NCBI GenBank assembly: GCA_944393125.1
Contig: CALXZB010000002.1
Span: 2,412 to 66,411, forward strand
DNA: 64,000 bases
Direction: 5' to 3'
Origin: an uncultured Clostridia bacterium
GTDB taxonomy: Bacteria; Bacillota; Clostridia; TANB77; CAG-508
Part shown: positions 6,086 to 49,827 of the stretch, one piece after another
Numbering within the stretch: the stretch's first letter is position 1
Layout of the letters: the number at the start of each line of letters is the position of its first letter
Notes under the pieces: model-generated
The model's input: the letters and a program-made list of their open reading frames with translations, nothing else
Database searches by the model: none
Told to the model about the DNA's origin: nothing
Position numbers and translations under genes: made by a program

Positions 6086-9000
6086 TTATATCACATATTT
6101 CTTTATTAAAAATATTCCAATAGCAATAATTCCTAATAATATTAAAATTAATTTAAAATATGTTTTTGCAGTACCTGTTGATATTACTAACATTACTTCA
6201 GCTATATCTATATCATCTTCTCCTTCTTTTTGATTATTAGGTGTTGAATCTCTATCAGGTACATTATATTCATTTTTATCCTCAGAAATTTCTACCATAT
6301 TTGTTTTTAATGCTAAGTTTTCAGAACCGTTTATCCAAGTTAATATAACTTCAACTGTTTTACTTTCACCTGGTTGTAATAATACATTTTCTAATTGTTT
6401 TGTAGAAACTACATTATTACCTTCATCTATCCAATTTGGATTATCATCTTGTTCAAATTTTAAACCTTCAGGTATGTAATCAGTTATTTCTGTTGCATAT
6501 CCTGGTATATCACCTTCATTTGTTATTGTAATTCCAAACCCAAATTTAACTGTAACTTCGTCTATTTTCTTTCTATGCAATTCTACTTTTACAATTGGTT
6601 CTGGATTTTCATGACCATTATATCCTGTTTTAGTAATTTTTTCTGTTCCATTTTCTTGCACTATAACTTTTGATACAAATTTTAATATTGATAAATCAAA
6701 ATATTCTACTTTTATATTTTCAATATCTTGATCATCTTCTCCATCATTCCATTTATCTGTTTGTGAATCTTTGTCTTTTATATGATTATTGTCTTTATCT
6801 CTATCATCAGATATTTGAGCATAATTTGTTATAATATACAAATTTGAATTTGGATCTTTTACTTTAAAAGATATTTTAATATCTCTGTAATATAATGTAT
6901 TTTGGTCAAATGCTGTAAGTAAATTATTTTTTCCATTTTCTTTTGACAAATATGTTGTTTTTACTTTTACAGCTTGTTCTGCATTTGCAGTTTCATTTCC
7001 GTTTTCATCATACATTTTCCACATATATTCTACATTTGTTGAATTTTCTGGCAAGTATTCTAAATATTCTGGAATATTGTCTGTTATTTCACTTGCATAT
7101 CCATCTATTTCACCTTCATTGTATATTCTTATAGTATATGTTACTATATCACCAACATGAACTGTTAAAGGTTCTTTAGTATGTTCATAAGAAATTACTC
7201 CATTTTCATTTTTTACTTGAGGGATTCTGCTTGTAATATCTTTATCTTGTACTTTTGTTATAAATTTTCTCAAAGCCAAATCAAATTCTTTCACATATAT
7301 TTTTTCAAAATCATCGTCATCTTCATTTCCTGGTACATATATATCATTTTCTAGTTCTTCCTTGTACTTTGGTAAATCTTCATCTTTTGGCAAATTTTTA
7401 TCAATGTTGTTAGACTCTGAATCTACATCTTTAGAATATACTATTTCACCATATTTGTATTCAGAAATTTCAGCTATATTAGTTATATTTTCTTTTGGAA
7501 TTGCATTTTCTAAAATCTTACATTCTATTTGTATATCTTCATAGTCTATTTTTGCTCCATCAAATGCTAGTAATTCTTTGTCTTTTAAATATGTAGTTAT
7601 TGCTATTCTTCCATCTTCTGCTATTTTCCACTTATACTTATTATTAATTGTACTATTTTCTACATATTCTAAGTATGGTGGTAAATAATCTGTTATTTCA
7701 CTTGCATATCCATCTATTTCTCCTTCATTATAAACCCTTATAGTATATATTATTTTATCTCCTGATTTTAAGCCTACAGGTACTTTTGAGTGATTATATA
7801 TAGCAGTTGTTCCTGTTTCATTTTGTAAAGGTGTTATATCTACTTTTGGCTCTCTTGAGTTTTCTAATACTTCATTATTTATTAATGTTATAAATTTTCT
7901 TAAGCTTAAATCAAATGTTTTTACACGTATTTTTTCAAAATCATCATCATCTTGTTGTCCTTCATAAAAATATTCACTATTTGATAATTCAGTTGGATTA
8001 TCATCATTTCCTTTATAATCTTCCATATTATCTTTTGATACTTTTGGATAATTTGCTGGTTCCGAGTCTATATCTTCTCCTATTTGTGTTGTTATTATTC
8101 TATTATCTTCTTTATTATATGCTTCATTTATCCAAGCAACATTTGTTAATATATTACTTTCATTAGCTTTTGCTGTATAAACTACTTTACATTTTAGCTC
8201 TATTGTTTCACTATCTAGTGTTCCATTTGTGTATGGATTTAGCTCTTGAGCTGGAGTTTCTTCTGTATTAATAATGTCAAGTATTACTTTATTTGTTGAG
8301 ACTTCATATGTTATTTTATATGTATTTTTCTTAACTCCATTTCCGTCTTTTGATATTACAGAAGTAGTTGGCATACATATTAATCCTTCTGGTAATTGAT
8401 CTATTATTTGACTAGCATATCCTGCTTTTTCACCTTCATTATATATTGTTATTGAGTAAGTTATAATATCATTTTCTTCAACTTCTAAAGGATCTTTTCT
8501 ATGCTTATATGTAGCTGTATTTTTTGTTTCAATTGTTTTTGTATCTATTTGTGGTACTCTTGTATTCATTCCTAATGTTGTAATTTCATTATTATTTATT
8601 TTTGTAATATACTTTCTTAAAGCTAAATCAAATGTTTTTTCTGGTATATGTGTATTTGTTATTATATATTTATTTTCATTATTTGAGTCTTTTTTTATTG
8701 TTGATGTATACCCTTTAACTGAAACTTCTTCAACTTCATAATTTATGTCTATTCCATTTTCTTTTACTGGTAAATCTGTAAAAATGTAATTCCAATTATT
8801 TTCTTTATTTAAAGTTGCTGATTGTACTATTTGATCTCCATTTTTTATATTTACTATTATTGATTGTGGTCTTATCTTATCATAGTCACTTTCGTCATCC
8901 CATATTTTTTCTACTTCAATACTCTTAGTTTTGGTTTCATGTTTATTTGTTATTATATATTCTGGTATAGAATTTGAATTATTATTTTTTACTATCATTG

Positions 9001-11659: not shown

Positions 11660-11770
11660 TTTTTCTTCCCTTCTTTTGTTTCTTTTTCAATTAAATTATA
11701 CCTTTATGTCAAAAAAAAATCAATGTTTATTTTTAGAAATTATAATTTATAAAAAATATATACAAAAAAA

Positions 11771-11796
11771 GTAATACCTTTATTTTGTGGTATTAC
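11771..11796. terminator. Bidirectional hairpin terminator between the two adhesin genes
   Basis: gtaatacc-tttattttgt-ggtattac is a perfect 8-bp stem. An A-run lies before it and a T-run after it. Confidence 0.55.
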
Positions 11797-11819
11797 TTTT
11801 CTAAAATAATTCTAATTTA

Positions 11820-14800
11820 TTATATTATAAATTTTTTTATCAATATAATTCCTATTGCTATGATTGCTAATAGTCCTAATACTAATGTAAAATATGTTTT
11901 TGCACTACCTGTTGATACTGCTAATATTACTTTTGCTATATCAATATCATCTTCACCATCTTTTTTGTTATCCGGTGTTGAATCTCTATCAGGTACATCA
12001 TATTCATTTTTATCTTCAGATATTTCTGCAGTATTTGTTTTTAATGATAAATTATTCGAACCATTTATCCATGTTAATATAACTTCTACTGTTCTACTTT
12101 CACCTGGTTGTAATAAAACATTTTCTAATTGTTTTGTAGATATTACATTATTTCCTTCATCTACCCAATTTGGATTATCAGCTTGTACAAATTTTAGTCC
12201 TTCAGGTATATAATCCGTTATTTCTGTTGCATATCCTGGTATGTCTCCTTCATTTGTTATTGTAATTCCAAATCCAAATTTAACTGTAACTTTGTCTAAT
12301 TTTTTTCTATGTAATTCTACTTTTACAACTGGTTCTGGATCTTCATGTCCGTTATATCCTGTTTCCGTTATTGTTTCTTTTCCATCTTCAATAACAATTA
12401 CTTTTGTTACAAATTTTAATAGCGCTAAATCAAAATATTCTACTTTAATATTTTCAACATCTTGATCATCTTCACCATCATTCCATTGATCTGGTTCTGA
12501 GTCTTTATCTTTTACAGGATTATTGTTTTCATCTCTATCATCAGATATTTGTGCGTGATTTGTTATAATATATGAATTTGAGTTTGGATCTTTAACTTTA
12601 AATGCTATTTTTATATCTTTATATGACAATGTATTTCCATCAAATGCATTTATTAAATTATCTTCGTTGTTTTCTTTTGACAAATATGTTGTCTTGACTT
12701 TTACTGCTTGATCTACATTTTCAGTTTCATTTCCATTTTCATCATACATTTTCCACATATATTCTACATTTGTTGAATTCTCTGGTAAATATTCTAGATA
12801 TTCTGGAATATCATCACTTACTTCATTAGCATATCCAGATATTTCTCCCTCATTATATACTCTTATTGTATATATTACTATGTCCCCTACATGAACAGTT
12901 AAAGGTTCTTTTGTATGTTCATAAGAAATGCTTCCATTTTCAATATTAGGTTGTGGTATTCTGCTTGTTATTTCTTTATCTTGAACTTGTGTTATAAACT
13001 TTCTTAATGCTAAATCAAATTCTTGTATATATATTTTTTCAAAGTCATCATCATCTTCGTTTCCTGGCACATATTCTTTGTCTATTTCTTCATTTTTATA
13101 TGATGATAAGTCTTTATCTGCTGGTAGATAACCTTTGCTCTCCATATTATCTGCTGTTGAATCTATATCTTTTACTACTGTATTTCCATTATACCTATAT
13201 TCAGATATTTCAGCTATGTTTGTTTGATTTTGTTTTAGTGCTGCATTTTCTAAAACTATACATTCTATTTTTAAATCTTCATAATCTAATGTATTTCCAT
13301 CAAATGCTTTTAATTCTTTATCTCTTAAATATGTTGTTGTAACAATTCTTCCATCTTCTGAAAGTTCCCACCCATAATTATTGTTTATTTCGCTATCTTC
13401 TATATATTTCAAATATGGTGGTAAGTAATCTGTTACTTCACTTGCAAAACCATCTATACTTCCTTCATTATATACTCTTATTGTATATATTATTTTGTCT
13501 TCAACTTGAACAGATACTGGTTTTTTAGAATGTTTATATATTGCAGTAGTATCAGTTCCATTTATTAGATTTGAAACATCAACTTCAGGTTCTCTTATAT
13601 ATTTTCCATCTTTATCTTTTAGTTCTGTTCCATTTACTGAAGTAATGAATTTTCTTAAGCTTAAATCAAAATATTGTAATTGAACTCTTTCTATATCTTG
13701 ATCATCATCTGTATCAATCCATACATCAGGTGTTGAATCTATATCTTCTATATCTTTATTTCCATCTTCATCTGTATGTTCAGATATTTGTGCATAATTT
13801 ACTAATACTCTATTTGATGTTGCTTGCTCTACAACTTTACATAGCACTTGAGCATCTATATAATCAGGATTTTCTTCGTTTATTTCTCCTTCTTTATTTA
13901 GTGCTTTTAATAAATTTGCTTGATAATTAGCATCTCCTTTTTCAGCATTTAATTCTGCTCCTTGTCCTTTTGCAAACCATGTTGTTGTTATAACTTGTCT
14001 TCCATCATCATCTATTCCATCTAAACTCCAAATACCATTATATTCTTCATTGTTTACAACAAATTCTAGTCCTATTGGTAATGTATCTTTTATTTTGCTA
14101 GCATATCCATTGATTTCACCTTCATTATATACTCTTATTGTGTATAACACATAATCTCCTGGCTCAACAGTTAGTGCAGCTTTATCATCTTGTTTATATG
14201 TAATTTTTCCTGTTTCAGCATTTATTGATTGTACAACCGGCGCTCTCAAATATACTCCATCTTTGTTTCCTGTATCTGTTACATATTCTCCATTTTCAAC
14301 TATTTGATCTTTACTTATTGCTGCTATATACTTAAATAATGCTAAATCAAATACCTTTTCTATTGGATTTATAACTACTTTTTCGAAGTCATCATCATCT
14401 TGTTGTCCTTTGTAGAAATATTCATTTTGTGATAAGTCTTCAGGATTTTCACTATTTCCTTTATAGTTTTCCATATTAGATTTATTTACAACTGCATTAT
14501 TTATTTGAGGTAATGTATATGGTTCTGAATCTCTGTCTTCTCCAACATTAGTTGTTATTGTTTTATTATCTTCTACATTATAGGCTTCATTTATCCATGC
14601 TACATTTGTTAAAATAATTTGTTCTTTTGTGTCTGCTTCTTGTGCTACTTTACACTTTATTTCTATAACTTCATAATCTAAGCCATTTGAAATTGTATAA
14701 GGTTGTAAACTTTGTGCAATATTTTCAGTTGTATTTACTATTTTTAATACTATTTGATTTGTAATTGTGTTATATGACACTGTATATGTATTTTTTGCAT

Positions 14801-16403
14801 TTCCATTTTTATCTTTTGAAGTTATTGTTGATGTTGTATTTGTTGACCTTATTAGTCCTGTTGGTAATTGATCTATTATTTCTGTTGCATATCCTGCTTT
14901 ATTTCCTTCATTATAAATTCTTATTTGATATGTTATTTCATCTCCATCTTCTACTACAACTGGATCTTTTCTATGTTTATAAGTTGCTGTTGTTCCTGTA
15001 AGAAGTGTATCTAAAGATATATTAGTTAAATTTCTTGCATTTGGTATTTCTTTTTCATTACCATTTTTATCATTTAATCCAACTATATATTTTCTTAGTG
15101 CTAAGTCGAATTCCTCTGGTTTAGATATTAGATTTATAATTGTTTCTTGTTGTTGAGGAATAATTTCTACAAGTGGTTGCTCAGAATTTAATTTTATTTC
15201 ATCTTCATTTTCTGTTCCTTGTAGCCATAATTTTTTTGAAATTGTTTTATATGATATTTTTATTTCAACATCTATGCTTTCTACTTTTTCTCTAGCTACT
15301 TTTATATAAAATTTTCCTTCTAATTTTTCTATTTCATTTTTTTCTTCATTTGTAAATACATAATCTGTATTATATTCTAGTTCTTTGCCTGTTTGATCTT
15401 TTACTATTATATCTAAATTATAATTTTGTTCATTATTTTTTTGAAGTTCTATTGGTCCTATAAAATAATTTTCTCCATCTCTGTTTGCATTTATAATATA
15501 TTTATCATTTTGTATAGTCAAACCTGATGTATTTATATTTATTGGTGCCTCATTTAATTGATAACCGTTTTCAGCAGTATATTGGTTAGCACCATTTTCT
15601 GCACCTGCTATTAAAAATTTATATAAATCCATTCCTATTGCATTTCTAGATTCACTTATTGTTTTTAATTGACTATAATTTGTCCCATCAGTTGTTACAA
15701 ATAGCCAAAGATCTTCTGCTGTTTTATCATAATTCCCACCATTTGTGAAATACCATATTGCCATTTTTTGAATTGCAATAATGTCAGCTCCTGTTAATTC
15801 TTCTCCTTGAGGGTAATCAATTTCTACTCCGTTCTCTATTTTGTAGTAATATTTTTCTCCTTCATATTCATATGAAAAGATTCCTATATTTTCTAAATAT
15901 GAATCTATATCATCTCCTGATATATATGCATTATCTAAAATCCATAATATTTGTTTATATTGTTGCCCTTCAGTGTTTAATAAATCTTTTATAATTTCAT
16001 CAGCATCATTACCATTATCTTTTAATTTATTTAATAAACTTTCTCTATCAGCTTGTAAGTCATAAGATAAATTATATTCAAGTATTTCATCTTCTTTTTG
16101 TTCAGTAAACCATGTTTGTCCATAATCAGCTTTTACACAATATAATTCTTTTTGTTCTTCACTTGTAGGTCCTGTCAAGCTATCTTGTACAAGTATATTC
16201 CATATATATTCACCTTTATTACTTGATCCTCCAACTGTTGGGTTTGGATTTCCATTTCCATATCCAACTCCATTTAAGTCTGTCTTTGATAACTTAACAT
16301 ATAATGGTTCATTTTCTACTCGTGCATATGTAATTAATTGATTAGCAATAATTGTTCCTAATACTAATAATATAATTAATATGCATATTACTCTTTTTTT
16401 CAT
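11820..16403 (-). CDS. Second giant surface adhesin, tandem paralogue of 6086..11659 (DUF11-type repeats, no Cna-B array)
   Basis: The 1527-aa ORF starts with a signal peptide (MKKRVICILIILLVLGTIIA). The N-terminal ~420 aa and C-terminal ~600 aa are collinear with adhesin 1 (e.g. YCVKADYGQTW vs YCLKGDYGASW). The C-terminus reads AVSTGSAKTYF + TM + KKFII. Confidence 0.8.
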   Translation of the reverse strand: MKKRVICILIILLVLGTIIANQLITYARVENEPLYVKLSKTDLNGVGYGNGNPNPTVGGSSNKGEYIWNILVQDSLTGPTSEEQKELYCVKADYGQTWFTEQKEDEILEYNLSYDLQADRESLLNKLKDNGNDADEIIKDLLNTEGQQYKQILWILDNAYISGDDIDSYLENIGIFSYEYEGEKYYYKIENGVEIDYPQGEELTGADIIAIQKMAIWYFTNGGNYDKTAEDLWLFVTTDGTNYSQLKTISESRNAIGMDLYKFLIAGAENGANQYTAENGYQLNEAPININTSGLTIQNDKYIINANRDGENYFIGPIELQKNNEQNYNLDIIVKDQTGKELEYNTDYVFTNEEKNEIEKLEGKFYIKVAREKVESIDVEIKISYKTISKKLWLQGTENEDEIKLNSEQPLVEIIPQQQETIINLISKPEEFDLALRKYIVGLNDKNGNEKEIPNARNLTNISLDTLLTGTTATYKHRKDPVVVEDGDEITYQIRIYNEGNKAGYATEIIDQLPTGLIRSTNTTSTITSKDKNGNAKNTYTVSYNTITNQIVLKIVNTTENIAQSLQPYTISNGLDYEVIEIKCKVAQEADTKEQIILTNVAWINEAYNVEDNKTITTNVGEDRDSEPYTLPQINNAVVNKSNMENYKGNSENPEDLSQNEYFYKGQQDDDDFEKVVINPIEKVFDLALFKYIAAISKDQIVENGEYVTDTGNKDGVYLRAPVVQSINAETGKITYKQDDKAALTVEPGDYVLYTIRVYNEGEINGYASKIKDTLPIGLEFVVNNEEYNGIWSLDGIDDDGRQVITTTWFAKGQGAELNAEKGDANYQANLLKALNKEGEINEENPDYIDAQVLCKVVEQATSNRVLVNYAQISEHTDEDGNKDIEDIDSTPDVWIDTDDDQDIERVQLQYFDLSLRKFITSVNGTELKDKDGKYIREPEVDVSNLINGTDTTAIYKHSKKPVSVQVEDKIIYTIRVYNEGSIDGFASEVTDYLPPYLKYIEDSEINNNYGWELSEDGRIVTTTYLRDKELKAFDGNTLDYEDLKIECIVLENAALKQNQTNIAEISEYRYNGNTVVKDIDSTADNMESKGYLPADKDLSSYKNEEIDKEYVPGNEDDDDFEKIYIQEFDLALRKFITQVQDKEITSRIPQPNIENGSISYEHTKEPLTVHVGDIVIYTIRVYNEGEISGYANEVSDDIPEYLEYLPENSTNVEYMWKMYDENGNETENVDQAVKVKTTYLSKENNEDNLINAFDGNTLSYKDIKIAFKVKDPNSNSYIITNHAQISDDRDENNNPVKDKDSEPDQWNDGEDDQDVENIKVEYFDLALLKFVTKVIVIEDGKETITETGYNGHEDPEPVVKVELHRKKLDKVTVKFGFGITITNEGDIPGYATEITDYIPEGLKFVQADNPNWVDEGNNVISTKQLENVLLQPGESRTVEVILTWINGSNNLSLKTNTAEISEDKNEYDVPDRDSTPDNKKDGEDDIDIAKVILAVSTGSAKTYFTLVLGLLAIIAIGIILIKKFII

Positions 16404-37969: not shown

Positions 37970-38182
37970 ATGTCAAAAGTAATAGACAGAATGCAAAAGA
38001 TTGTTTCTGAACTTCCTCAAGATTACTTTGACAACATGGATGAATATGCAACAGTAGGCGCACTTATTGATTTATATTTAAAGAAATATGGTGAAGATGA
38101 AACAACTTTAATTCCAGGTACAAATACACATATGAATTATGAATATTTTAAAAATCTTTATAATAAGTTTAAAAAAAATTAG
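37970..38182 (+). CDS. Small protein P1 (70 aa), paralogue of P3
   Basis: It has an RBS (AGAGAGGAGAA). It shares the pattern MS..ID....K.I.SLP.D...........KKY.E with P3. Confidence 0.5.
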   Translation: MSKVIDRMQKIVSELPQDYFDNMDEYATVGALIDLYLKKYGEDETTLIPGTNTHMNYEYFKNLYNKFKKN

Positions 38183-38194
38183 GAGGTTAAAAAT

Positions 38195-38383
38195 ATGTTT
38201 TTTTTACAAAATGCATTAAAATCAATTAATTTACAAAATGATTCTTTATATGATTTTCTTTATGATATGGTCTTATTTATAGGATTACAAAAAAGTGAAG
38301 AAGATATTAAAAATGGTAGAGTTATGACTATTGAAGAATCAAAGGAAAGGATGAAAGTTACTTATGAATATCTTGATATCTGA
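38195..38383 (+). CDS. Small protein P2 (62 aa), paralogue of P4. Its C-terminal motif G..xT.EE is typical of TA antitoxin tails.
   Basis: AGGAGG lies 8 nt before the ATG, which is 12 nt after the P1 stop. It has YDFLYDMVLFIGLQKSEEDIKNGRVMTIEE, which compares with P4's YDCLYNLYVLLGIVKGVNEINLENGIPLDD. Confidence 0.5.
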   Translation: MFFLQNALKSINLQNDSLYDFLYDMVLFIGLQKSEEDIKNGRVMTIEESKERMKVTYEYLDI

Positions 38384-38689
38384 AAGTGCTCACCAAAATA
38401 TTAGTAATATATAATTATGTATTTTATTTCTGAAAAAGAAAATTTTATTAATATTCGTTATGTTTTAAGTGATAGGCAAAATCGTACTCAATTCTTAGAA
38501 TTACATAAAAAAGAAATTTTTGATATCATAAATTTTTTAAATCAATTTATTTAAATCCCGTTTTGAATAAATCCCAAAGTCACTACATATTTTCAAGTTT
38601 TTTCAAAATTATGCAAAAACTTTGTATTTTTGTATATTTTTTCATTTTAATAACTCAATTATAATATAGCATTCTTTTTATATCTCACT

Positions 38690-38759
38690 TAAAGTTTACA
38701 AATTATTCACATAAAATTATAGTAATTTGAGTATATTTATGTTATACTATTAGTATATT
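38690..38759 (+). promoter_or_regulatory. Promoter/operator repeat copy B (extended -10 TGtTATACT)
   Basis: See copy A. It lies 18 nt upstream of the P3 ATG. Confidence 0.5.
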
Positions 38760-38776
38760 TTAATGAAAGGAGGTTT

Positions 38777-39004
38777 ATGATGTCAAATATTAATGATAAT
38801 TTTATAAAAGCTATTGGATCGTTGCCTTATGACATTGATGAAGAAATAAAAATTAAAGATATCATTGTAATTCTTCAAGATGTAACAAAAAAATATATTG
38901 AACTTTTTGGAACTAACGATTTAAATGAAAATGATAAGACATGCATTCAAAGTATTTTGACTGCCCATACAGCACAAAATATATTGCAAGAAAAAAATAA
39001 CTAG
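38777..39004 (+). CDS. Small protein P3 (75 aa), paralogue of P1. It is the first gene of a P3-P4-ParE cassette.
   Basis: The RBS is AAAGGAGG. It starts MMSNINDNFIKAIGSLPYDIDEE. Confidence 0.5.
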   Translation: MMSNINDNFIKAIGSLPYDIDEEIKIKDIIVILQDVTKKYIELFGTNDLNENDKTCIQSILTAHTAQNILQEKNN

Positions 39005-39021
39005 AAAGGATTGATTTTAAT

Positions 39022-39243
39022 ATGAAAGAACCTAACGAAAAAATTCAAATAGAAAAAATTGTTGATATGCTAAAAAATTCAGAGCAAAATGTAACATTTT
39101 ATGATTGTCTTTATAACTTATATGTACTATTAGGTATTGTCAAAGGTGTGAATGAAATTAATTTAGAAAATGGTATTCCTTTAGATGATTTTTTGACAGA
39201 AAGAGAGGCTTTATATGAAAATTATAATAGAAAATCTAGCTAA
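39022..39243 (+). CDS. Small protein P4 (73 aa), the putative antitoxin partner of the downstream ParE/RelE toxin
   Basis: It lies immediately upstream of the toxin gene and overlaps it by 29 nt. Its C-terminal NGIPLDDFLTEREA resembles ParD/RHH-antitoxin C-terminal tails. There is no recognisable RHH N-terminus. Confidence 0.5.
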   Translation: MKEPNEKIQIEKIVDMLKNSEQNVTFYDCLYNLYVLLGIVKGVNEINLENGIPLDDFLTEREALYENYNRKSS

Positions 39244-39559
39244 AAAAGGACTCGATGATATATTTTGTTATAATATACAATATTCTATAGAAAATGCTAT
39301 AAATACCGATTATGCTATAACTGAATATATTAAAACTCTAATTACTTCCCCATATATTGGAAGATGCATTCCAGAGATGAAAAATAATCATTTTAGGGAA
39401 ATTATATATCAAAAGAATCCAAAATCTTCATATCGTATTATGTATTACATACATGATTCTAAAAATTCTATTCATATCTTTAATATTATGAATTCTAAAC
39501 AAGATTTTAATCATATTTTAACAATGCACAATTATTTCCAAAACTATTTTGAAATTTAA
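39215..39559 (+). CDS. ParE/RelE-superfamily type II toxin (114 aa)
   Basis: It has ENLAKKGLDDIFCY near the N-terminus. It has LITSPYIGRCIPEMKNNHFREIIY in the middle. It ends with SYRIMYYIHDSKNSIHIFNIMNSKQDF. These match the RelE/ParE pattern A..DL..I..Y ... P..G......R......YRIIY.v.......I.rI.H.kd. Confidence 0.7.
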   Translation: MKIIIENLAKKGLDDIFCYNIQYSIENAINTDYAITEYIKTLITSPYIGRCIPEMKNNHFREIIYQKNPKSSYRIMYYIHDSKNSIHIFNIMNSKQDFNHILTMHNYFQNYFEI

Positions 39560-39697: not shown

Positions 39698-42600
39698 TTA
39701 TTCATTTACTGTTTCAGTAACTACTTCATTATTTTCAGTTGAAGTTTCTTTTTCGTCTTCTCCTTCAACTTTAATTTGTACATCTTGATATACTTTCATA
39801 CCAGTACCTGCTGGGATAAGTTTACCAATAATTACATTTTCTTTTAGTCCAATTAAGTCATCTTCTTTACCTTTAATAGCTGCTTCTGTTAATACTCTAG
39901 TTGTCTCTTGGAATGAAGCTGCAGACAAGAAGCTATCTGTTGCTAAAGATGCTTTAGTAATACCTAGTAATACTCTCTTACCAGTTGCAATACGTTTTCC
40001 TTTTTCTTCAGCCTTTTTATTATTTTCTTCAAAGTCATACATATCAACTAAAGAACCTGGGAACATACCTGTATCTCCGCCATCTTCAACTCTAACTTTT
40101 CTAAGCATTTGTCTTGCAATAACCTCAATGTGTTTATCATTAATATCAACACCTTGGTTTCTATATACTTTTTGAACTTCAGAAATTACATATTCATAAA
40201 CTCCTTCTGGTCCTTTAATTGCAAGTATTTCAGCTGGATTTATAGAACCTTCTATAAGTGGTTGTGCAGCTTTTACTTCATCTCCATCTTTTACTTTTAA
40301 TTTTGAACCAAATGGTATAGTATATGTTCTAGAATCATCTTTAGATGTAACAATAATTTCTTTTTTCTTCTTTGTTTCAGAAATTTTAACTTTACCATCA
40401 ATTTCTGTTATAACAGCTAATCCCTTTGGTTTTCTAGCTTCAAAGATTTCTTCAACTCTAGGAAGACCTTGAGTGATATCTGCAACACCTGCAACACCAC
40501 CAGAGTGTATAGTTCTCATGGTTAACTGTGTACCAGGTTCACCAATTGATTGTGCTGCTATAATACCAACAGATTCTCCTATTGAAACTTCTTCTCTTCT
40601 TGCTAGTCCCATACCATAACATTTTTGGCATACACCATGCTTACTTCTACATCCAATTACTGAACGAACATAAACTTGTGTTATACCAGCATCTACTATT
40701 TGTTTTGCTATATTTTTATTTATCATTGTATTTGTATCTACAATCAATTCTCCTGTTTCAGGATGTACTATATCATTTAATGGGAATCTACCTTCTAATC
40801 TTTCTTCTAGTTTTTCAACTACTTGATTTCCATCTTTAATATCTTCTAGCATTAAACCTTCATGTGTTCCACAATCATGTTCTCTTACTATTATGTCTTG
40901 TGATACATCAACAAGTCTTCTTGTTAAATATCCAGAGTCAGCTGTTCTTAAAGCTGTATCTGATAAACCTTTACGTGCACCATGTGAAGAAATGAAATAT
41001 TCTAGAGCATCTAGTCCTTCACGGAAACATGATTTTATTGGTATTTCAACAGCTTTACCAGTAGTACTTGCCATAAGTCCACGCATACCTGCAATTTGTC
41101 TTAATTGGTTCATATTACCACGGGCTCCTGATTTAACCATCATATATATTGGGTTTAAGTCATCAAAATTTTCTTCCATTGCCTTACTTACATCGTTTGT
41201 AGCTTTATCCCAAATATTAACAACTGTTTTATATCTTTCATCATCAGTTATCAAACCTCTTCTATATTGGTTTCTAACTTTTTCTACTTGTTTTTCAGCA
41301 TCTGCTAATATGTCTTTTTTTGCAGCAGGTACTTCAACATCTGCTACTGAGAATGTAATACCAGCTAATGTTGAATATTTGAATCCTAATTCTTTAATAT
41401 AATCTATTACTTCTGCTGATTCAGTTAAGCCATGTTTTTCTATAACTTTATCTATTATTGTACCCATTGATTTTTTCATTACAGGAAAATCTATTTCATA
41501 TTGGAATGGATCTTCGTTTCTATCTATAAATCCTAAATCTTGTGGAATACCTTGGTTAAATATAATTCTACCAACACTTGTAGGGATTTTCTTTGATTTC
41601 ATTTCGCCATTTATCTCTTTTGTTATTTTTACGAAAATCTTTGCATGTATTCCTACTGCATTATTTTGAAATGCCATTATTGCTTCATCAGGATCTTTAA
41701 AATATTTTCCTTCTCCTAATTCACCATCTAATGTCATTGTTAAATAATAGCTTCCTAAAATCATATCTAGTCTTGGTACTGCAACTGGCTTACCATCTTG
41801 TGGTTTTAATAAGTTATTTGTAGCTAACATTAAATATCTTGCTTCCGCTTGTGCTTCTGGTGTTAATGGTAAGTGAACTGCCATTTGGTCACCATCGAAG
41901 TCTGCATTAAATGCTTCACATACTAATGCATGTAGTTTTATTGCTCTACCTTCTACTAAAACAGGTTCAAATGCTTGAATACCTAATCTATGTAATGTTG
42001 GAGCACGGTTAAGCATTACAGGGTGGTCTTTAATTACTTCTTCAAGTATTCCCCATACTTCTGGGCTTAATCTTTCTACCATTCTTTTTGCACTTTTTAT
42101 ATTATGTGCCATATGTCTTCCAACTAATTCTCTCATTACAAATGGTTTGAATAATTCAATAGCCATTTCTTTTGGAAGTCCACATTGATATATTTTTAGT
42201 TCTGGTCCTACAACAATTACAGAACGTCCTGAATAGTCAACTCTTTTTCCTAATAAGTTTTGACGGAATCTACCTTGTTTTCCTTTTAATAAATCAGATA
42301 AAGATTTTAAAGGTCTGTTTCCAGCTCCTGTAACAGGTCTTCCTCTTCTTGAATTATCTATTAATGCATCTACTGATTCTTGTAACATTCTTTTTTCATT
42401 TCTTACAATAATCTCTGGTGCACCAAGTTCAAGTAATCTTTTTAATCTATTATTTCTGTTTATTACTCTTCTATATAAGTCATTTAAGTCTGATGTTGCA
42501 AATCTTCCACCATCTAATTGCACCATTGGTCTTAAATCTGGTGGAATTACTGGTACAACATTCATAACCATCCATTCAGGTCTATTCCCTGATTTTCTAA

Positions 42601-43249
42601 ACGCCTCTACTGTGTCTAACCTTTTAACTAGTTTTGCTTTTCTTTGTTCACTAGCAGATTCTAAATCCTTTTCAATTTCTGCAGTTAATTTTTCTAAATC
42701 TATTTCTTCAAGTAATTTTCTTATTGCTTCTGCACCCATTTCAGCTTTAAATGATTTTTTACCATATTTTTCTTCTGCTTCATGATATTCTTTTTCATTT
42801 AAAACTTGAGCTTTTTCTAGTCCTGATGTTCCTTTGTCTGTAACAATATATGATGCAAAATATATTACTTTTTCAAGATTTCTTGGTGATATATCTAGCA
42901 TTAATGCTATTCTACTTGGAATTCCTTTAAAATACCAAATATGTGCAACTGGTGCAGCTAATTCAATATGTCCCATTCTCTCTCTTCTAACTTTTGATTT
43001 TGTTACTTCAACACCACATCTATCACAAACAATTCCCTTATATCTTACTCTTTTATATTTACCACAATGACATTCCCAGTCTTTTGTTGGTCCAAATATT
43101 TTTTCACAGAATAAACCATCTTTTTCTGGTTTTAATGTTCTATAATTTATTGTCTCAGGTTTTTTTACTTCACCTTTTGACCATTCTCTTATCTTTTCAT
43201 CTGATGCAATTCCTATTTTTATTTTGTTGAATATCTCTAATTCTTCCAT
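39698..43249 (-). CDS. rpoC: DNA-directed RNA polymerase subunit beta'
   Basis: The 1183-aa ORF has the zinc finger [21 protein letters not shown], the NADFDGDQM catalytic motif and overall collinearity with RpoC. Confidence 0.95.
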
Positions 43250-43297
43250 CTTTATTAGATGTCCCCCTTCTTAATTTTATTGGGTAATTCCAAAACA

Positions 43298-43326
43298 GTT
43301 ATAATAGCTGTCCACTGCTCTTGCAA
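43298..43326 (-). promoter_or_regulatory. Candidate sigma-A promoter for rpoC inside the ORF-rpoC spacer
   Basis: On the minus strand it reads TTGCAA (43321-43326), then 17 nt, then TATAAC (43298-43303). It overlaps a 17-nt near-palindrome, acagttataatagctgt. Confidence 0.4.
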
Positions 43327-43365
43327 AATATTTTGTCGCTATATAACTTTTTGGAATTTATTTAA

Positions 43366-43896
43366 TTATTTTTCTAATTCTTGCATTTTTAACACTTTTT
43401 CTATTGCTAACATAATATTTATTTTATCTACTTCTTGTTCTCTAAGAGTAAATTTACTTTTTAAACTGTCAGCTGTAACTTTTACTTTTTGTTCTTCTAG
43501 TTCTTTTGCATATGTGTTTACTCTATCTACAAACATTTGCAATGTATCACTAGCTCTTTTATGTGCTTCTCTATCAGTTTCTCTTTGTATTCTAAAAAGT
43601 CTACTATATTTTGCTATAATATTTCCTTTTTCGTCAATTCCAAACTCATAATTTTCTCCAGATAAAAGTTCTTTAATATATTGTGCAATTTGTTGTTTAT
43701 GCATTTGTAAGCCTAAATTGTTTGCAATATAATCTACTATTTCAACTAAGTTTATACTTTCTCCATTTTGAGGATTAATTTCATCAATTCTTCTAAATAA
43801 TTGTTTTTTTATAGATTCTTGGGCTATTTCTATTTGGCCTTGATCATCTTCTTCATATCTTAGTCCTCTTAAAAATTTTTGATTTCCCTTAAACAT
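43366..43896 (-). CDS. Hypothetical charged, helical protein (177 aa from MFKGNQ) encoded between rpoB and rpoC
   Basis: A 546-nt open frame in AT-rich DNA. GGAGGA lies 7 nt upstream of the second ATG. It is 31 nt downstream of the rpoB stop and co-oriented with rpoB and rpoC. The sequence is coiled-coil-like (…EELEEQKVKVTADSLKSKFTLREQEVDKINIMLAIEKVLKMQELEK). Confidence 0.6.
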   Translation of the reverse strand: MFKGNQKFLRGLRYEEDDQGQIEIAQESIKKQLFRRIDEINPQNGESINLVEIVDYIANNLGLQMHKQQIAQYIKELLSGENYEFGIDEKGNIIAKYSRLFRIQRETDREAHKRASDTLQMFVDRVNTYAKELEEQKVKVTADSLKSKFTLREQEVDKINIMLAIEKVLKMQELEK

Positions 43897-43927
43897 TTCA
43901 ACATCCTCCATTTTGTCAACAAGTCTA

Positions 43928-46900
43928 TTACATTATATCATTTTCATCATCTAGATTATCTTCTGCTAAATCATTATCATAAATACTTTCTTCATCTTCT
44001 AAGTCATCATCAAACAACTCATCACTATCTTCATCATCAAGCATTTCTTCATCTGCTTCTGAGTAGCCATCTTCAAGTTCTTCATGAATAAGCACATCAT
44101 CTTCTGTTAGTGCTCTTCCTTCTGCTGTTTCATCATATTCAATTCCATCTTCAATATTTTCTTTTAGTTCAAGTTCTTCATTATTATCAGCAAATAATTT
44201 TATATCTAGACCTAATGCTTGAAGTTCTTTTACTAAAACTTTAAAGCTTTCTGGAACTCCTGGTTCAGGAATATTTTCTCCTTTAACTATAGCTTCATAA
44301 ACTTTTACACGTCCAATAGTATCATCAGATTTTACTGTTAATATTTCTTGTAGTGTATAAGCTGCACCATAAGCTTCAAGTGCCCAAACTTCCATTTCTC
44401 CAAAACGTTGTCCACCAAATTGTGCTTTACCTCCAAGTGGTTGTTGTGTTACTAATGAGTATGGTCCTGTTGAACGAGCATGTATTTTATCATCTACTAA
44501 ATGATGTAGTTTTAACATATACATTACTCCTACAGTTATTGGACTTGCAAATGGTTCTCCTGTTCTTCCATCATAAAGAATAGATTTACCATCTGGTGTT
44601 AATCCAGCTTCTTGTAATAATTCTTCAATTTCTTTTTCTGAAGCTCCATCAAATACAGGTGTTGATATTTTATATCCTAATGCTCTAGCTGCTGCACCTA
44701 AGTGAACTTCTAATACCTGTCCTAAGTTCATACGTGATGGTACACCTAATGGGTTTAGTAATATGTCTATTGGTGTTCCATCTGGTAAGAATGGCATATC
44801 TTCTGTTGGTAATATTCTTGAAATTACACCTTTATTACCATGACGTCCAGCCATTTTATCTCCAACAGAAATTTTTCTTTTTGTTGCTATATAACATCTT
44901 ATTACTTGATTTACTCCAGGTCCTAATTCTTCTGAATTGTCTCTTGTGAAGATTTTTACATCTACTATAGTTCCTGCTTCTCCGTGTGGTACACGTAATG
45001 AAGTATCTCTTACTTCTCTAGCTTTTTCTCCAAATATTGCACGAAGCAATCTTTCTTCTGCTGTTAGCTCTGTTTCACCTTTTGGTGTTACTTTACCAAC
45101 TAATATATCTCCAGGTCTTACTTCTGCACCAATTCTTATTATTCCATTTTCATCTAAGTCTTTTAATGCGTCATCTCCAACATTTGGAATATCTCTTGTT
45201 ATTTCTTCTGCTCCTAATTTAGTATCACGACATTCACAATCATATTCTTCAATATGTATTGATGTAAATACATCTTCTTGTACTAATCTTTCATTTAAAA
45301 GAATAGCATCTTCATAGTTATAACCTTCCCATGTTGAGAATGCAATTAATACATTTTTTCCTAAAGCCATTTCTCCATCTTTTGTTGATGGTCCATCTGC
45401 TATAGCTTCTCCTTTTTTAACTTTTTCGCCTTTTTCTACTATTGGTTTTTGGTTAATACATGTTCCACCATTTGTTCTTTTAAATTTACGCAATTTGTGT
45501 ACAACAGTTTTTCCATTATTATATTTCATTGTTATACTGTCACCAGTAACTTTTTCTACAATTCCATCATCTTCAGCTAATACTAAGATTCCTGAGTCTT
45601 TTGCAGCTCTATATTCAATACCAGTTGCAACTATTGGTGCTTCTGTTACCATTAGTGGAACTGCTTGACGTTGCATGTTTGCACCCATTAGAGCTCTTTT
45701 TGCATCATCATGCTCTAAGAATGGTATCATTGCTGCAGCTATTGATACAAGTTGCTTTGGTGATACATCTATATATTGTACTAATTCTTTGTCAACTTCT
45801 GTTATTTCGTTTTTATGTCTTACACGTATACGTTTATTTATAAATTCTCCATTTTCATCCATTGGTTCAGATGCTTGTGCTATTATATAATTATCTTCAA
45901 CATCTGCACTCATATATTCTACAATATCTGTTACTCTATGTGTTTCTGGATCTATTTTTCTATATGGTGTTTCAATAAATCCATATTCGTTTATATTTGC
46001 AAATGAAGATAATGCAGAAATTAGTCCTATATTTGGTCCTTCTGGTGATTCTATTGGACATAGTCTACCATAATGTGTATAGTGAATATCACGTACTTCG
46101 AATCCAGCTCTTTCTCTTGAAAGCCCTCCTGGTCCTAATGCAGAAATTCTTCTTTTATGTGTTAGCTCTGAAAGTGGGTTTGTTTGATCCATGAATTGTG
46201 ATAATTGTGAACTTCCAAAGAATTCTCTTATTGATGATGTTATTGGTTTAGTATTTATCAATGTTTGTGGTGTTACAACATCTAAGTCTTGTATTGTCAT
46301 TCTCTCACGAACAACTCTTTCAAGTCTTGTTAGTCCAATTCTGAATTGATTTTGTAATAGTTCTCCTACACATCTTATTCTACGATTTGCTAAATGGTCT
46401 ATATCATCTTTTTTTCCTAATCCTTGATGTATATTTAATAAATAACTTACTGAAGCAATAATATCTTCTGTAGTTATATGTTTTGGAACTAATTCATCAT
46501 ATCTTTCACTTAAAGTTTTTACTAAGTCTTCTTCACTTGTATTTTCCATAATGTTTTTTAGCACTTCATAATTTACATTTTCTTTAAAATGTAATTTACT
46601 TAAGTCAACATTTGGTAATACTTTATAGATGTTTACTGTTCCATTTCCTATTACTCTTATTTTTTTGTCTCCAAGTTTAATATCTACAATGTTTATTCCT
46701 GCATTTTGAATGTTTTCTGCAACTTCTGGTGTTATTATTTCTCCTGCTGTTACAAATACTTCTCCTGTTTCCTTGTCCATTATGTCTTCAAATGCAACTT
46801 GATTTTTTATTCTATTTGCTATACTTAATTTTTGGTTAAATTTATATCTTCCTACTTTTGCTAAATCATATCTTCTATTGTCAAAAAATAATCCGTTAAA

Positions 46901-47674
46901 TAAACTTCTTGCAGCTTCAACTGTTGGAAGTTCTCCAGGTCTTAATTTCTTGTATATTTCTATTAAAGCATCTTCACCTGTTTTTATTGGGTCTTTTTGA
47001 ATTGTTGTTTCTAGTAAGTTTTCTTCTCCAAATAATGTTCTTATTTGGTCATCTGATATTAATCCAATTGCTCTTAATAATGTTGTTACAGGTATTTTTC
47101 TAGTTCTGTCTACACGCACCCAAAACATATCATTTCCATCTGTTTCATATTCAATCCATGCCCCTCTTAATGGCATTACTGTTGATGTATATGTTTTCTT
47201 TCCTGTTTTTGTGTCAAAAATTTCATCATAGTAGCATCCAGGTGAACGTACTAATTGGCTTACTACAACTCTTTCTGCTCCATTTATTATGAATGTTCCA
47301 CTTTCTGTCATTAGTGGAAAATCTCCTAAGTATATTTCTTGTTCTTTGATTTCACCTGATTCTCTGTTTATTAATCTTACTTTTACATGTAATCTTGTTG
47401 AATATGTTGCATCTCTTTCTTTTGCCTCTTCCTCTGTGTATTTTGTTTTGTCTTCCATGTAATAATCGAAGAATTCTAATACTAAGTTTCCTGAATAGTC
47501 AACTATAGGTGAAATATCTTTTAATACTTCTCCAAGTCCTTCTTCTACAAACCAGTCATATGAATCTTTTTGAACTTTGATTAGGTTTGGCATTTCAATA
47601 TAATCGCCAACCTTTGAAAAATCCTTACGAGTTGTTCTTTCGAACTTAACTTCTTTGATTTCCAAACAAATCAC
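43928..47674 (-). CDS. rpoB: DNA-directed RNA polymerase subunit beta, with a long acidic C-terminal tail
   Basis: The 1248-aa ORF has conserved RpoB blocks (e.g. [30 protein letters not shown]). The last ~90 aa are D/E-rich. Confidence 0.95.
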
Positions 47675-47880
47675 TCCTTAAAAATTATTAAGCAGATAGG
47701 TAATTTTTTATAACCTTTATTTGAAATTTTATTTAGAAAAATCCCTTCTTAATATATATTTTCATAAGTTTTCGAATTTTGTCTGCTTTACAATCTTCTA
47801 CATCTTACTTCCATATATTTAATTCTTATTTTTCTAATTTTTAACTATTGTGAATTAATTTTTTGACTTTTTTTAATAGA

Positions 47881-47904
47881 ATAAAAAATGGCAAAAAAAG
47901 CCAT
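47881..47904 (-). terminator. Hairpin terminator downstream of the DUF2207 gene, upstream of the rpoB leader
   Basis: atggc-aaaaaaa-gccat with an A-run on the low-coordinate side (a U-run in the minus-strand RNA). Confidence 0.45.
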
Positions 47905-47954
47905 CTTCCGTAAAGTCATACAGTATTAATAATAACATAATTTATTTGCTTTTG

Positions 47955-49706
47955 TCAATAGTTTTTGGCTACTTTCGAAAGAAAAAAAGTGCCGTTTAGA
48001 CACTTTTTATTTAACGGAAGCCTCCGGCCTCCTCCTCCACCTCCGAAGGAGCCACCTCCACCTCCTCCAGAAGAGAAACCTCCACCTCCTGAAGAATAAC
48101 TTTGAGCTCTTGCTCTTGCATTGTTGGCACTATATATTCCTCTTGTTGCACATGCATTTATAAATATTATATTATCATAAGAATAAAAATTTGATTGTTC
48201 AATTACTTCTGGATATAAATCTTTAAACTCTTTTGCTACTTCTTTTGCTATTCCTAATATTTGTGCACATATTAAATAGTCTTCAAATAAGTGTACTTCA
48301 ATTGCTTTTCTTTCCTTAATATATGTATAGTCTAGTAAATAGCGTTTTAGTCCTGCAATTTGTTCTGCAGTCTCTTGTAATTCTTGTGTTGCAACATATT
48401 GTTTAGTTTTGAAAATTTTTAATATTTTCTTTTCTTTTTTTACAATTAAACCTTTTTCTATTAATTTATTTTTTTCAGCATTTATTATATCATCAAACCA
48501 AGGTAAAATCCTTGAATAACTTTTTTTGCACCACTTTTCAAATTCTTTGTTTTCTAATATTCCATCTTGGCTAGCTTCTAATAGCATTTTAAACAAAAGT
48601 CTTTCTTTAGAATTTTCTATTGCTTCTGGTTTTGTTTCATTTAAAACTATTCTTGTATCATCTCTCTTAAAAATTACTCCAGTTTCTTTTTGTTCTATTC
48701 TTATTAAAGATTTTTTTAACCAACTTAGTATTACTGCTCCTAATAAATCTGTTTTATTTTTGATTAATCCATATATATAAGATATATAATAAATTCTATA
48801 TATATCATTCTCACATGGAATATCTCTAAAATATGGTACATCTTTTGATATCTTTTTTACACCAACTTTTGAATTTTTATTCATTACTATTATTAATATT
48901 GAAAGTATTATTAAAATGTAAATTATTATTGAAGAAAATAATTGTAAAAATGATGTTATATATGAACTTTCATTTTTATATGTAGTAGCACCTTCTTGTG
49001 CTAATTCATAATAATAATTAAAGTCTTTTTTTAATTCATTTTGTGAATTAAATGTGTTTAAAGGAAATTTAACTAATATAGTCATATATTCATCTTTTCT
49101 TAAACTTCCATCAGATTGCATTTCTATATACCCATCATATACATATGCTGTTCCACCATAGTTTCCATATCCCCAAACCTCTATATCTTTAGGAATATAA
49201 AAGTCTGTATAAATTTTAATATATACATTTCCAATAGTATTTGAAAAATCATATGGTATTAATGTCCAATAAATCATTTGAGAATCTGTTAAGGTAGAAA
49301 CAAAATTTGTGATTTCATAACTAGCTATATAAGTATGGTTTCCATATTCACTTATTCCCCAGCATAATTCAACACCATTAGAAATTTTATTAATTCCACA
49401 TTTATATGCTTTACTCTCTAAAGTTCCTGATGTTTTCCATGAGTTTAAGCTAGTATAGTTTTTACCATTTTCACTAACACAAAAATTTATTATTTCTGAA
49501 TTTCCTAAATTATAATATGGATGATAGACTTCTGTTCCTTGGTTTGTATTGCATTTCCATGTTTCAGTTATTTTTGCATTCCCATTTTCGTCAACATATA
49601 TTTCCATAGAAATACTACTAATTGAATTAGCTTCTGCATTTTCCCCTATGCTAAATAATATTAGACAAAATATAAATAATATTGTTATTTTTAATATTTT
49701 TTTCAT
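47955..49706 (-). CDS. DUF2207-family membrane protein (signal peptide, extracellular domain, TM helices, Gly-rich C-terminal tail)
   Basis: The start is taken at MKKILKITILFIF (AAGGGG RBS). It has a mid-protein TM cluster and a C-terminal SYSSGGGGFSSGGGGGGSFGGGGGG tail characteristic of DUF2207 proteins. Confidence 0.65.
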   Translation of the reverse strand: MKKILKITILFIFCLILFSIGENAEANSISSISMEIYVDENGNAKITETWKCNTNQGTEVYHPYYNLGNSEIINFCVSENGKNYTSLNSWKTSGTLESKAYKCGINKISNGVELCWGISEYGNHTYIASYEITNFVSTLTDSQMIYWTLIPYDFSNTIGNVYIKIYTDFYIPKDIEVWGYGNYGGTAYVYDGYIEMQSDGSLRKDEYMTILVKFPLNTFNSQNELKKDFNYYYELAQEGATTYKNESSYITSFLQLFSSIIIYILIILSILIIVMNKNSKVGVKKISKDVPYFRDIPCENDIYRIYYISYIYGLIKNKTDLLGAVILSWLKKSLIRIEQKETGVIFKRDDTRIVLNETKPEAIENSKERLLFKMLLEASQDGILENKEFEKWCKKSYSRILPWFDDIINAEKNKLIEKGLIVKKEKKILKIFKTKQYVATQELQETAEQIAGLKRYLLDYTYIKERKAIEVHLFEDYLICAQILGIAKEVAKEFKDLYPEVIEQSNFYSYDNIIFINACATRGIYSANNARARAQSYSSGGGGFSSGGGGGGSFGGGGGGRRLPLNKKCLNGTFFLSKVAKNY

Positions 49707-49827
49707 AATTTTCCCCTTTTTAAGAATTATCTCATACTGTAAAAAAAATATCAATATTTTTTTTATAACCTTGACTTTTTTTTACAATATAGTAAAATAT
49801 AGTATAAGTAATTTTAAGGAGGAAAAT

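Follow-up and report, generated by a model that had tools for sequence, protein, structure and literature searches.

A 64,000-nt stretch of DNA from an uncultured Clostridia bacterium (contig CALXZB010000002.1 of assembly GCA_944393125.1, positions 2,412 to 66,411 of the forward strand; hereafter the window, within which all positions are numbered) carries an additional open reading frame (ORF) between rpoB and rpoC, the genes for the beta and beta' subunits of RNA polymerase. The ORF is a real gene with a fixed position, a narrow distribution and a fast rate of evolution, and it is independent of a conserved hairpin that separates it from rpoC. It is best classed as encoding a small lineage-specific predicted winged-helix protein tied to RNA polymerase. 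With about even confidence, we take the product to be a lineage-specific accessory protein of the polymerase; co-transcription with the polymerase genes, binding to the enzyme and any effect on transcription are what we infer.

Locus and gene model

The interval between rpoB and rpoC is 678 nt long (43250-43927, minus strand). The features of the locus were as follows.

43928-47674, minus strand: rpoB (beta subunit), 1248 codons from the GTG given in the ORF list
43897-43927, minus strand: rpoB-ORF spacer, 31 nt, containing the ribosome-binding site GGAGGA at 43909-43904
43366-43896, minus strand: the ORF gene, 176 codons and a stop; product of 20.7 kDa with an isoelectric point (pI) of 5.9
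43262-43267, minus strand: ribosome-binding site GGGGGA of rpoC, kept in related loci
39698-43249, minus strand: rpoC (beta' subunit), 1183 amino acids (aa), from the ORF list

A preliminary description of this DNA had reported a 546-nt frame on the same strand as rpoB and rpoC, and this was confirmed at 43366-43911 (stop included; 181 codons from the first ATG), as were the GGAGGA site 7 nt from the start and the two distances, 31 nt between the rpoB stop and the ORF start and 116 nt between the end of the ORF and rpoC. The product, given there as 177 aa, was corrected to 176 aa. Comparison with homologues places the true start at the second ATG (43896), 7 nt downstream of the ribosome-binding site, because the close homologues are all 176 aa long and begin with MFKGN. 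The upstream in-frame ATG at 43911 was rejected as the start because it overlaps the ribosome-binding site and is out of frame in the orthologue at locus L090.

The frame had been judged too long for chance in AT-rich DNA, and the numbers bear this out. With stop codons at a frequency of 0.10 in this DNA (26.9% GC), a run of 176 open codons has a chance probability of about 8e-9, and when the 678-nt interval was shuffled 5000 times no frame of that length arose. GC contents at codon positions 1, 2 and 3 were 45, 23 and 10%, the same pattern as in rpoB and rpoC, with third-position values of 9.7% for the ORF versus 10.6% for rpoB and 11.2% for rpoC. An identical protein is encoded on 8 independent contigs, flanked each time by rpoB and rpoC, and a misassembly or a sequencing frameshift of either gene, which had been named as a possible refutation, is therefore excluded. 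Both genes are full length with all Pfam domains present (Rpb2 domains were found on the rpoB orthologues of L094 and L102, and Rpb1 domains on an identical rpoC product in L082). The ORF as a detached piece of rpoB or rpoC was rejected, both genes being complete and the family members having no similarity to either. No paralogue was found when family members were compared with the whole window, and a terminator scan of the interval gave no terminator-like site on either side of the ORF. The ORF is a genuine protein-coding gene under selection and not a chance frame or an assembly artefact.

Family membership and genomic context

Sequence searches of Pfam, NCBIfam and the PDB, made both with the single protein and with a profile of the family, gave only sub-threshold, inconsistent matches, in line with the earlier failure to assign a family. 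The best PDB sequence match, a CbiG-like stretch of 3eeq (E = 0.002), was judged spurious. A word-indexed search of 5.8 billion proteins returned three clusters only, 86-94% identical and all unnamed, and the same search with the family profile returned 8 proteins only. An exhaustive HMMER search of 1.84 billion representatives gave 29 clusters at 50% identity with E <= 1e-3, one of which, a 458-aa match at E = 7.5e-4, was rejected as a probable false positive. This search places the ORF in a family that comprises 28 clusters at 50% identity, is unnamed in every source used and matches no curated model. No description of a gene lying between rpoB and rpoC was found in a search of the literature.

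Full-length members are mostly 175-193 aa long, six listed clusters are fragments of 75-124 aa, and identity to the window protein falls to 26%. Two members are longer, P0041 (245 aa, L101) and P0053 (264 aa, L105 and L106). Two stretches of P0041 match the family profile, suggesting that its C-terminal module was duplicated within the protein. In L105, rpoC appears as two separate calls, and the contig may contain a frameshift. The best-conserved family motif, W-I-x-L-A-I-x-K-V-L, lies near the C-terminus.

Genomic context was read for 12 members spanning the whole identity range, namely the window protein and P0001, P0021, P0022, P0025, P0028, P0036, P0038, P0040, P0041, P0050 and P0053, including members only 26-31% identical to the window protein. 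In 12 of 12 the upstream flank ends rpoB and the downstream flank starts rpoC wherever a flank could be read; three short contigs stop before rpoC, and one has only the last 13 rpoB codons. In the window the ORF fills the interval, with no other gene beside it. The ribosome-binding-site context GGAGGATG(T/C/A)(T/A)(G/A)AAA(A)ATG was present in most loci read (L093 has GAGGGATG, and L101 differs), and the rpoB-ORF spacer was 20-31 nt in 8 of 10 architectures read, the exceptions being L096 (88 nt) and L101 (about 155 nt). The ORF is probably co-transcribed with rpoB, as had been proposed, and with rpoC, because the ribosome-binding site is conserved, the spacers are short and no terminator-like site was found.

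Family patterns built from the closest six members had no match in IMG/VR or the JGI metagenomes, and tblastn found no family match in GenBank phages or PLSDB plasmids. A BFVD fold search gave no informative match, PADLOC gave no match and PHROGs gave scattered, inconsistent matches only, above E = 0.009. The suggestion of a selfish insertion riding on the operon was not borne out: no copy of the gene was found in another context, the phage, plasmid and defence libraries gave no match and codon usage is native, so that contexts, collections and composition do not point to a mobile origin (flanking repeats were not searched for).

Distribution and history in the clade

For comparison, at least 80 rpoB-rpoC junctions were fetched from GTDB species representatives, with the rpoC N-terminus as the probe. 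The 80 junctions listed come from Bacillota-like genomes, the window's own species not being among them, and a relative of the ORF was found in 0 of these 80, which marks the ORF as an evolutionary addition. The spacer between rpoB and rpoC was 0-155 nt in 71 of them and at most 496 nt, which agrees with the earlier statement that the two genes are normally adjacent. The longest spacer, in L070 (CAKVFI010000001.1), contains a 73-aa frame (MDKENDNQIYLDL...) that is unrelated to the family and unverified as a gene.

The closest species among the matches listed are L002-L005, which are 87-89% identical over the first 300 rpoC residues and have spacers of 125-230 nt and no ORF. In the full-length rpoC tree, the window groups with L094 (86% identical), and this group is sister to the ORF-less L002, L003 and L004. 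The family member in L094 is among the most diverged, with 26% identity to the window protein. In trees of the N-terminal 240-330 rpoC residues, the ORF-less L005 falls with the ORF-bearing L094 and L106 at 80-83% bootstrap. The 125-nt spacer of L005 (CAZHCX010000169.1, 466-590) retains the hairpin, and the gene was probably lost cleanly and secondarily there.

By these comparisons the family is confined to a narrow Clostridia clade with rpoC about 86% identical, and the simplest history is probably a single gain in that clade followed by at least one loss. It had been allowed that the ORF might prove to be a known conserved gene; its position is indeed conserved in the clade, but it does not belong to a described family. 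The relatives are titled Clostridiaceae, Clostridia or Clostridium sp. metagenome-assembled genomes (MAGs), and some of their sample and MAG labels suggest poultry gut or an anaerobic digester, the sources behind the labels being unverified.

Rate and pattern of evolution

Where rpoC is about 86% identical, the ORF product is 26-50% identical. C-terminal rpoB fragments of 155-205 aa were 79-93% identical in four of five pairs; in the fifth pair, L100, the fragment was 66% and the ORF 31% identical. At a synonymous distance (dS) of about 0.55-0.6 measured on rpoB, ORF identity was 33-50% and that of the rpoB fragments 88-93%, and the Nei-Gojobori ratio of nonsynonymous to synonymous change (dN/dS) in those pairs was 0.6-0.8 for the ORF versus 0.07-0.16 for the rpoB fragments. 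In the most distant pairs the ratio for the ORF is nominally about 1, a value made unreliable by AT content and saturation. Over a dN of up to about 0.7 the frame remains open, with a length of 175-193 aa and, in two members, of 245 and 264 aa. In close pairs, dN/dS was 0.26-0.36 for the whole ORF and 0.09-0.12 for the C-terminal half versus 0.38-0.54 for the N-terminal half, so that these pairs show purifying selection concentrated in the C-terminal half. In a set of 21 close homologues, variation affects 12 of the first 20 residues, compared with 3 of the 56 residues at 121-176.

The ORF also stands apart from its neighbors between near-identical strains. The window and L102 differ by 3 nonsynonymous changes in the whole of rpoB and by none in the first 340 rpoC codons, and the ORF product differs at 12% of residues; dS was 0.03 for rpoB, 0.075 for rpoC and 0.18 for the ORF. 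A sliding comparison over 7.7 kb gave a single peak of 13% divergence at 43751-43900 against a background of about 0.7%. The raised dS of the ORF suggests old alleles or recombination and not relaxed constraint alone. The family looks ancient by its sequence divergence and young by the organisms that carry it.

Such rates raise the possibility of a gene driven by conflict, or of a passenger, that would use the strongly expressed rpoBC message for ends outside routine transcription, for example as a guard or decoy against phage proteins that target the polymerase, as an immunity-like factor or as a tolerated young orphan gene. Taken jointly, we regard these as possible and rather unlikely. The low identity relative to rpoC, the dN/dS of 0.6-0.8, the ORF-specific divergence between near-identical strains (in dS, in residues and as the single peak), the clustering of variable sites in the N-terminal 24 residues and the patchy presence with a probable loss in L005 all speak for them. 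However, PADLOC gave no match and the PHROG matches were scattered and inconsistent, no partner gene or mobile-element feature accompanies the ORF, its strictly fixed position argues for a link to the operon over free-riding, the C-terminal half is under clear purifying selection, and the AT content and the degree of saturation make the distant-pair ratios unreliable.

Predicted structure and likeness to delta

An AlphaFold2 model of the single chain was built from the family alignment and had a mean predicted local distance difference test (pLDDT) score of 85. It divides the protein as follows.

43825-43896, minus strand: poorly ordered N-terminus, codons 1-24, pLDDT 49-56 (residues 1-20), hypervariable within the species-level group
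43606-43848, minus strand: predicted winged-helix domain, codons 17-97, with helices 17-40, 50-61 and 64-78, a strand 47-49 and a hairpin of strands 85-87 and 92-95
43369-43602, minus strand: helical basic C-terminal half, codons 99-176, from the model, the alignment and a pI of 9.0, with the W-I-x-L-A-I-x-K-V-L motif

The C-terminal half is modeled as a long helix (99-135), short helices and a final helix (158-175); its pLDDT is 83-96 over residues 101-170 and falls to 74 in the final six. It follows an acidic N-terminal half with a pI of 5.0. The product had been called coiled-coil-like; the model instead predicts a winged helix and a helical C-terminal half.

The top Foldseek match in the PDB was Bacillus subtilis RpoE, the delta subunit (9a6y_A, with 2krc and 8x6g_E also matched), none of these matches being significant (E = 0.41). 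The B. subtilis delta sequence was confirmed against PDB entry 7f75_L, and delta homologues were gathered for an alignment of N-terminal domains. Against this alignment, hhalign gave the family profile a weak signal (probability 30.6%, P = 5e-4, score 27.9) that places family residues 42-83 on delta 25-68; 200 column-shuffled profiles scored 12.1 on average (standard deviation 2.7, maximum 23.7), and the reversed profile scored 18.4. PF05066, the delta family, was not among the matches of the window protein at E <= 10 or, at E <= 1, among the 25 families matched most often by the 24 members, and the NCBIfam delta model had no match to the window protein. Judged by sequence, the protein is not a member of the delta family. 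The profile signal, real but weak, fits a delta-like (HARE-HTH-like) winged helix and does not establish delta membership.

Delta (RpoE; a PF05066 HARE-HTH domain plus an acidic disordered C-terminal domain; Bacilli and Mollicutes) is of like size (173 versus 176 aa) and shares with the ORF product a two-part build with an N-terminal winged-helix-type domain. Both are small proteins tied genetically or physically to RNA polymerase in low-GC Gram-positives. In contrast to the ORF, which lies inside rpoBC and is limited to one narrow Clostridia clade, delta is encoded elsewhere in the genome, and the ORF appears to evolve far faster than delta. The long acidic tail is on beta itself in the ORF clade and on delta in the delta system.

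Epsilon (RpoY) and omega (RpoZ) resemble the candidate role of the ORF product in being small, core-associated and lineage-restricted, but they differ from it in size and predicted fold, and neither matched in the Pfam and NCBIfam scans, where only unrelated sub-threshold matches appeared. Their genes presumably do not lie between rpoB and rpoC, going by the gene order of B. subtilis and Escherichia coli. ScpB, the cullin WHB domain, MarR/IclR-type regulators and Z-alpha match the model over the winged helix only and are without the C-terminal half, the sequence and the genomic context of the ORF. True Clostridia have been reported to lack rpoE and to carry only helD (PMC8655204), epsilon has been reported absent from Clostridia, and delta's N-terminal domain has been located at the beta' jaw/clamp (bioRxiv 10.1101/2021.06.06.447298). 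For these reasons a delta-like accessory protein is plausible in this lineage.

Acidic tail of beta and proposed role

The rpoB product ends in an acidic C-terminal tail of about 110 aa, the last part of which forms a motif.

43931-43975, minus strand: terminal acidic motif of rpoB, last 15 codons, from a comparison of rpoB C-terminal ends

The motif, DLA(N/E)DNLD(N/D)xxD(I/M)(I/M)(E) with the final E usual, was read in the rpoB 3' ends of the window, L001, L090, L091, L093, L096, L098-L102, L105 and L106. It is kept in all ORF-bearing loci, even where ORF identity is down to 26%, and the rest of the tail is variable. It is absent from the ORF-less L003, L004 and L005, and the ORF-less L002 has a similar motif, DLSEDNIEDENL. 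As a lead, L005, which appears to be nested among carriers, seems to have lost the gene and the motif together, and we hypothesize that the basic constrained C-terminal half of the ORF product binds the acidic beta tail.

In the reading we favor, the gene would have been gained between the rpoB stop codon and a pre-existing hairpin in the rpoC leader and inherited vertically thereafter, with at least one probable loss. It would be carried, probably, on the rpoBC message with a strong ribosome-binding site of its own and so be made together with beta and beta'. The protein, with an N-terminal winged helix resembling delta's N-terminal domain and joined to a constrained basic helical C-terminal half, would bind the core enzyme, possibly via beta' as delta does or via the acidic C-terminal motif of beta. 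The preliminary description had offered an RNA polymerase-associated factor among its guesses, and this is the best-supported of them.

Several points weigh against this reading. Binding to the polymerase is proposed from gene context and a likeness of fold that is modest. The C-terminal half, basic and predicted to be helical, is unlike that of delta, which is acidic and disordered. The ORF appears to evolve much faster than expected of core-associated subunits. It is also dispensable, being apparently lost in L005 and absent from the sister group L002-L004. The co-occurrence of ORF and motif, a lead only, rests on a single co-loss, and L002 partly has the motif without the ORF.

A more elaborate version of the accessory-subunit reading, which we hold unlikely, is that the C-terminal domain docks on the beta motif and the hypervariable N-terminus is under diversifying selection, owing to its place at a host-parasite interface on the polymerase, for example as the target of phage-encoded polymerase inhibitors or as a guard against them. 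If true, a protein bound to the polymerase would be evolving in an arms race from within the operon that the cell conserves most.

Hairpin upstream of rpoC and remaining alternatives

The spacer between the ORF and rpoC carries a conserved hairpin, located 7 nt beyond the ORF end and directly upstream of the rpoC ribosome-binding site.

43286-43358, minus strand: conserved hairpin with a stem about 21 bp long and a small inner hairpin within the apical loop, which measures about 29 nt

The minimum free energy was -24.1 kcal/mol (z = -3.4), and RNAalifold supports the fold. The stem sequences differ among orthologues (CCAAAAAG/CTGTTTTGG, CTTAAAAG/CTGTTTAAG, GTAGAATG/TGATTCTAG), and the loop is conserved as (G/A)CGAC-N7-9-TTGCAAGAGCnnTGGAnAG. 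In the covariation analysis, 94.2% of cells were paired, compensatory double changes occurred in 12 of 14 pairs, 0 of 500 shuffles were as good and slid registers fell to 34-58%. A covariance model built from 11 sequences matches every ORF-bearing locus in which the downstream spacer is present, L105 and L106 from outside the training set (61-71 bits), and the ORF-less L005, L002 and L004. It had no match at E < 0.01 in the other 77 listed junction loci; a match in L060 was rejected as being at chance level, on the opposite strand and away from the junction. The following spans were obtained with the covariance model.

43279-43358, minus strand: window
9891-9964: L002
9899-9977: L004
485-566: L005
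6608-6693: L094
1912-1988: L105
1295-1382: L106

The loop core GAC...TTG...GC..TGG is also found in the ORF-less L002 and L005, and the hairpin of L004 is more diverged. Rfam 15 gave only two transfer RNAs at the gathering score in the window, and at E <= 10 nothing relevant in 43200-43960, where the only match was a chance one to a small nucleolar RNA on the opposite strand. An intrinsic terminator was rejected, there being no U-tract. By its covariation and distribution, the hairpin is a clade-specific structured element of the rpoC leader that is present with or without the ORF. It predates the gene or is independent of it, because the ORF-less L002, L004 and L005 carry it, and the ORF was added after the rpoB stop and ahead of TAATTAAATAA, the sequence before the hairpin.

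The hairpin may act in processing, in stability or in the translational control of beta'. The E. coli ribosomal-protein/rpoBC unit, with its structured leaders and processing sites (the rplL-rpoB attenuator and an RNase III site), offers a parallel in that a conserved stem-loop stands in the rpoBC message upstream of a polymerase-subunit cistron. Unlike those leaders, the present hairpin lies between rpoB (or the ORF) and rpoC, has no U-tract and is clade-specific.

The proximity of gene and hairpin invites the view that the ORF product is a nucleic acid-binding autoregulator whose winged helix would adjust the ratio of beta to beta' by binding either the operon promoter or the rpoC hairpin (in RNA or DNA form). 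The predicted fold does resemble many DNA- and RNA-binding proteins, the ORF ends 7 nt before the hairpin and the sequence-conserved apical loop suggests a binding site. We nevertheless consider this role doubtful. The hairpin and loop core occur in the ORF-less L002 and L005, and a diverged hairpin in L004, and the function of the hairpin is therefore independent of the ORF protein; the protein changes fast and the loop is near-constant, an ill fit for a specific protein-RNA pair, and the N-terminal half is acidic.

The same spacer had been read as holding a sigma-A promoter (TTGCAA-17-TATAAC) overlapping an operator-like near-palindrome, which would give rpoC a regulated promoter of its own; we judge this very unlikely. 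The hexamers are present at the claimed spacing (TTGCAA at 43326-43321, a 17-nt spacer and TATAAC at 43303-43298), as is the inverted repeat, and TTGCA is kept in most ORF-bearing loci. However, both hexamers fall within the long conserved hairpin, TTGCAA in its apical loop, which is conserved, and TATAAC in its 3' arm, which covaries with the opposite arm. The near-palindrome is the hairpin stem, and the conservation follows the pattern of a base-paired stem, as the compensatory changes show. The -10 position varies by lineage (CAATAA in L090, TTAGAC in L091, TTCTTA in L093), no orthologue has a usable -10 at that spacing, and TATAAC lacks the invariant final T. A consensus promoter scan did not report the site, and promoter-like matches in the region were at chance level (8 found versus 5.5 +/- 2.5 expected). 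ORF-less relatives have TTGTTC where TTGCAA stands, and L002, L004 and L005 carry the hairpin without the ORF.

That the ORF is a nonfunctional open frame or an annotation artefact is effectively refuted and hardly credible: the absence of a described family and the high dN/dS in distant comparisons would fit it, but the chance probability of about 8e-9 and the shuffles do not, and a frame of similar length is open in all 12 contexts from at least 10 distinct clusters at 50% identity, with a C-terminal half at a dN/dS of 0.09-0.12, a confident predicted fold and an identical protein on 8 contigs.

Other features of the window

The rpoB-rpoC pair (39698-49754 with its upstream neighbor) stands outside its usual ribosomal-protein context. 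The gene upstream of rpoB encodes a DUF2207 membrane protein in place of rplJ-rplL, and rpsL-rpsG-fusA do not follow downstream. Directly downstream of rpoC and convergent with it are five small ORFs of 62-114 aa (37970-39559, plus strand), the last with a weak match to a ParE toxin and the first four resembling two similar pairs; these are likely toxin-antitoxin-type modules. Two adjacent very large ORFs of 1857 and 1527 aa lie at 6086-16403 on the minus strand.

Significance

The adjacency of rpoB and rpoC is among the most stable gene pairs in bacteria. The gene described here interrupts it in a narrow uncultured clade, and its function is proposed from context and a modest fold similarity. 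The extreme rate of change, with a within-species peak amid near-invariant DNA, offers a case in which rapid evolution at the transcription machinery can be tested. Control of beta' synthesis has a second, independent candidate in the clade-specific hairpin. A protein made in step with beta and beta' would lend itself to the role of a new small polymerase subunit or of an assembly factor, and this one occurs in Clostridia, a class reported to be without delta and epsilon.

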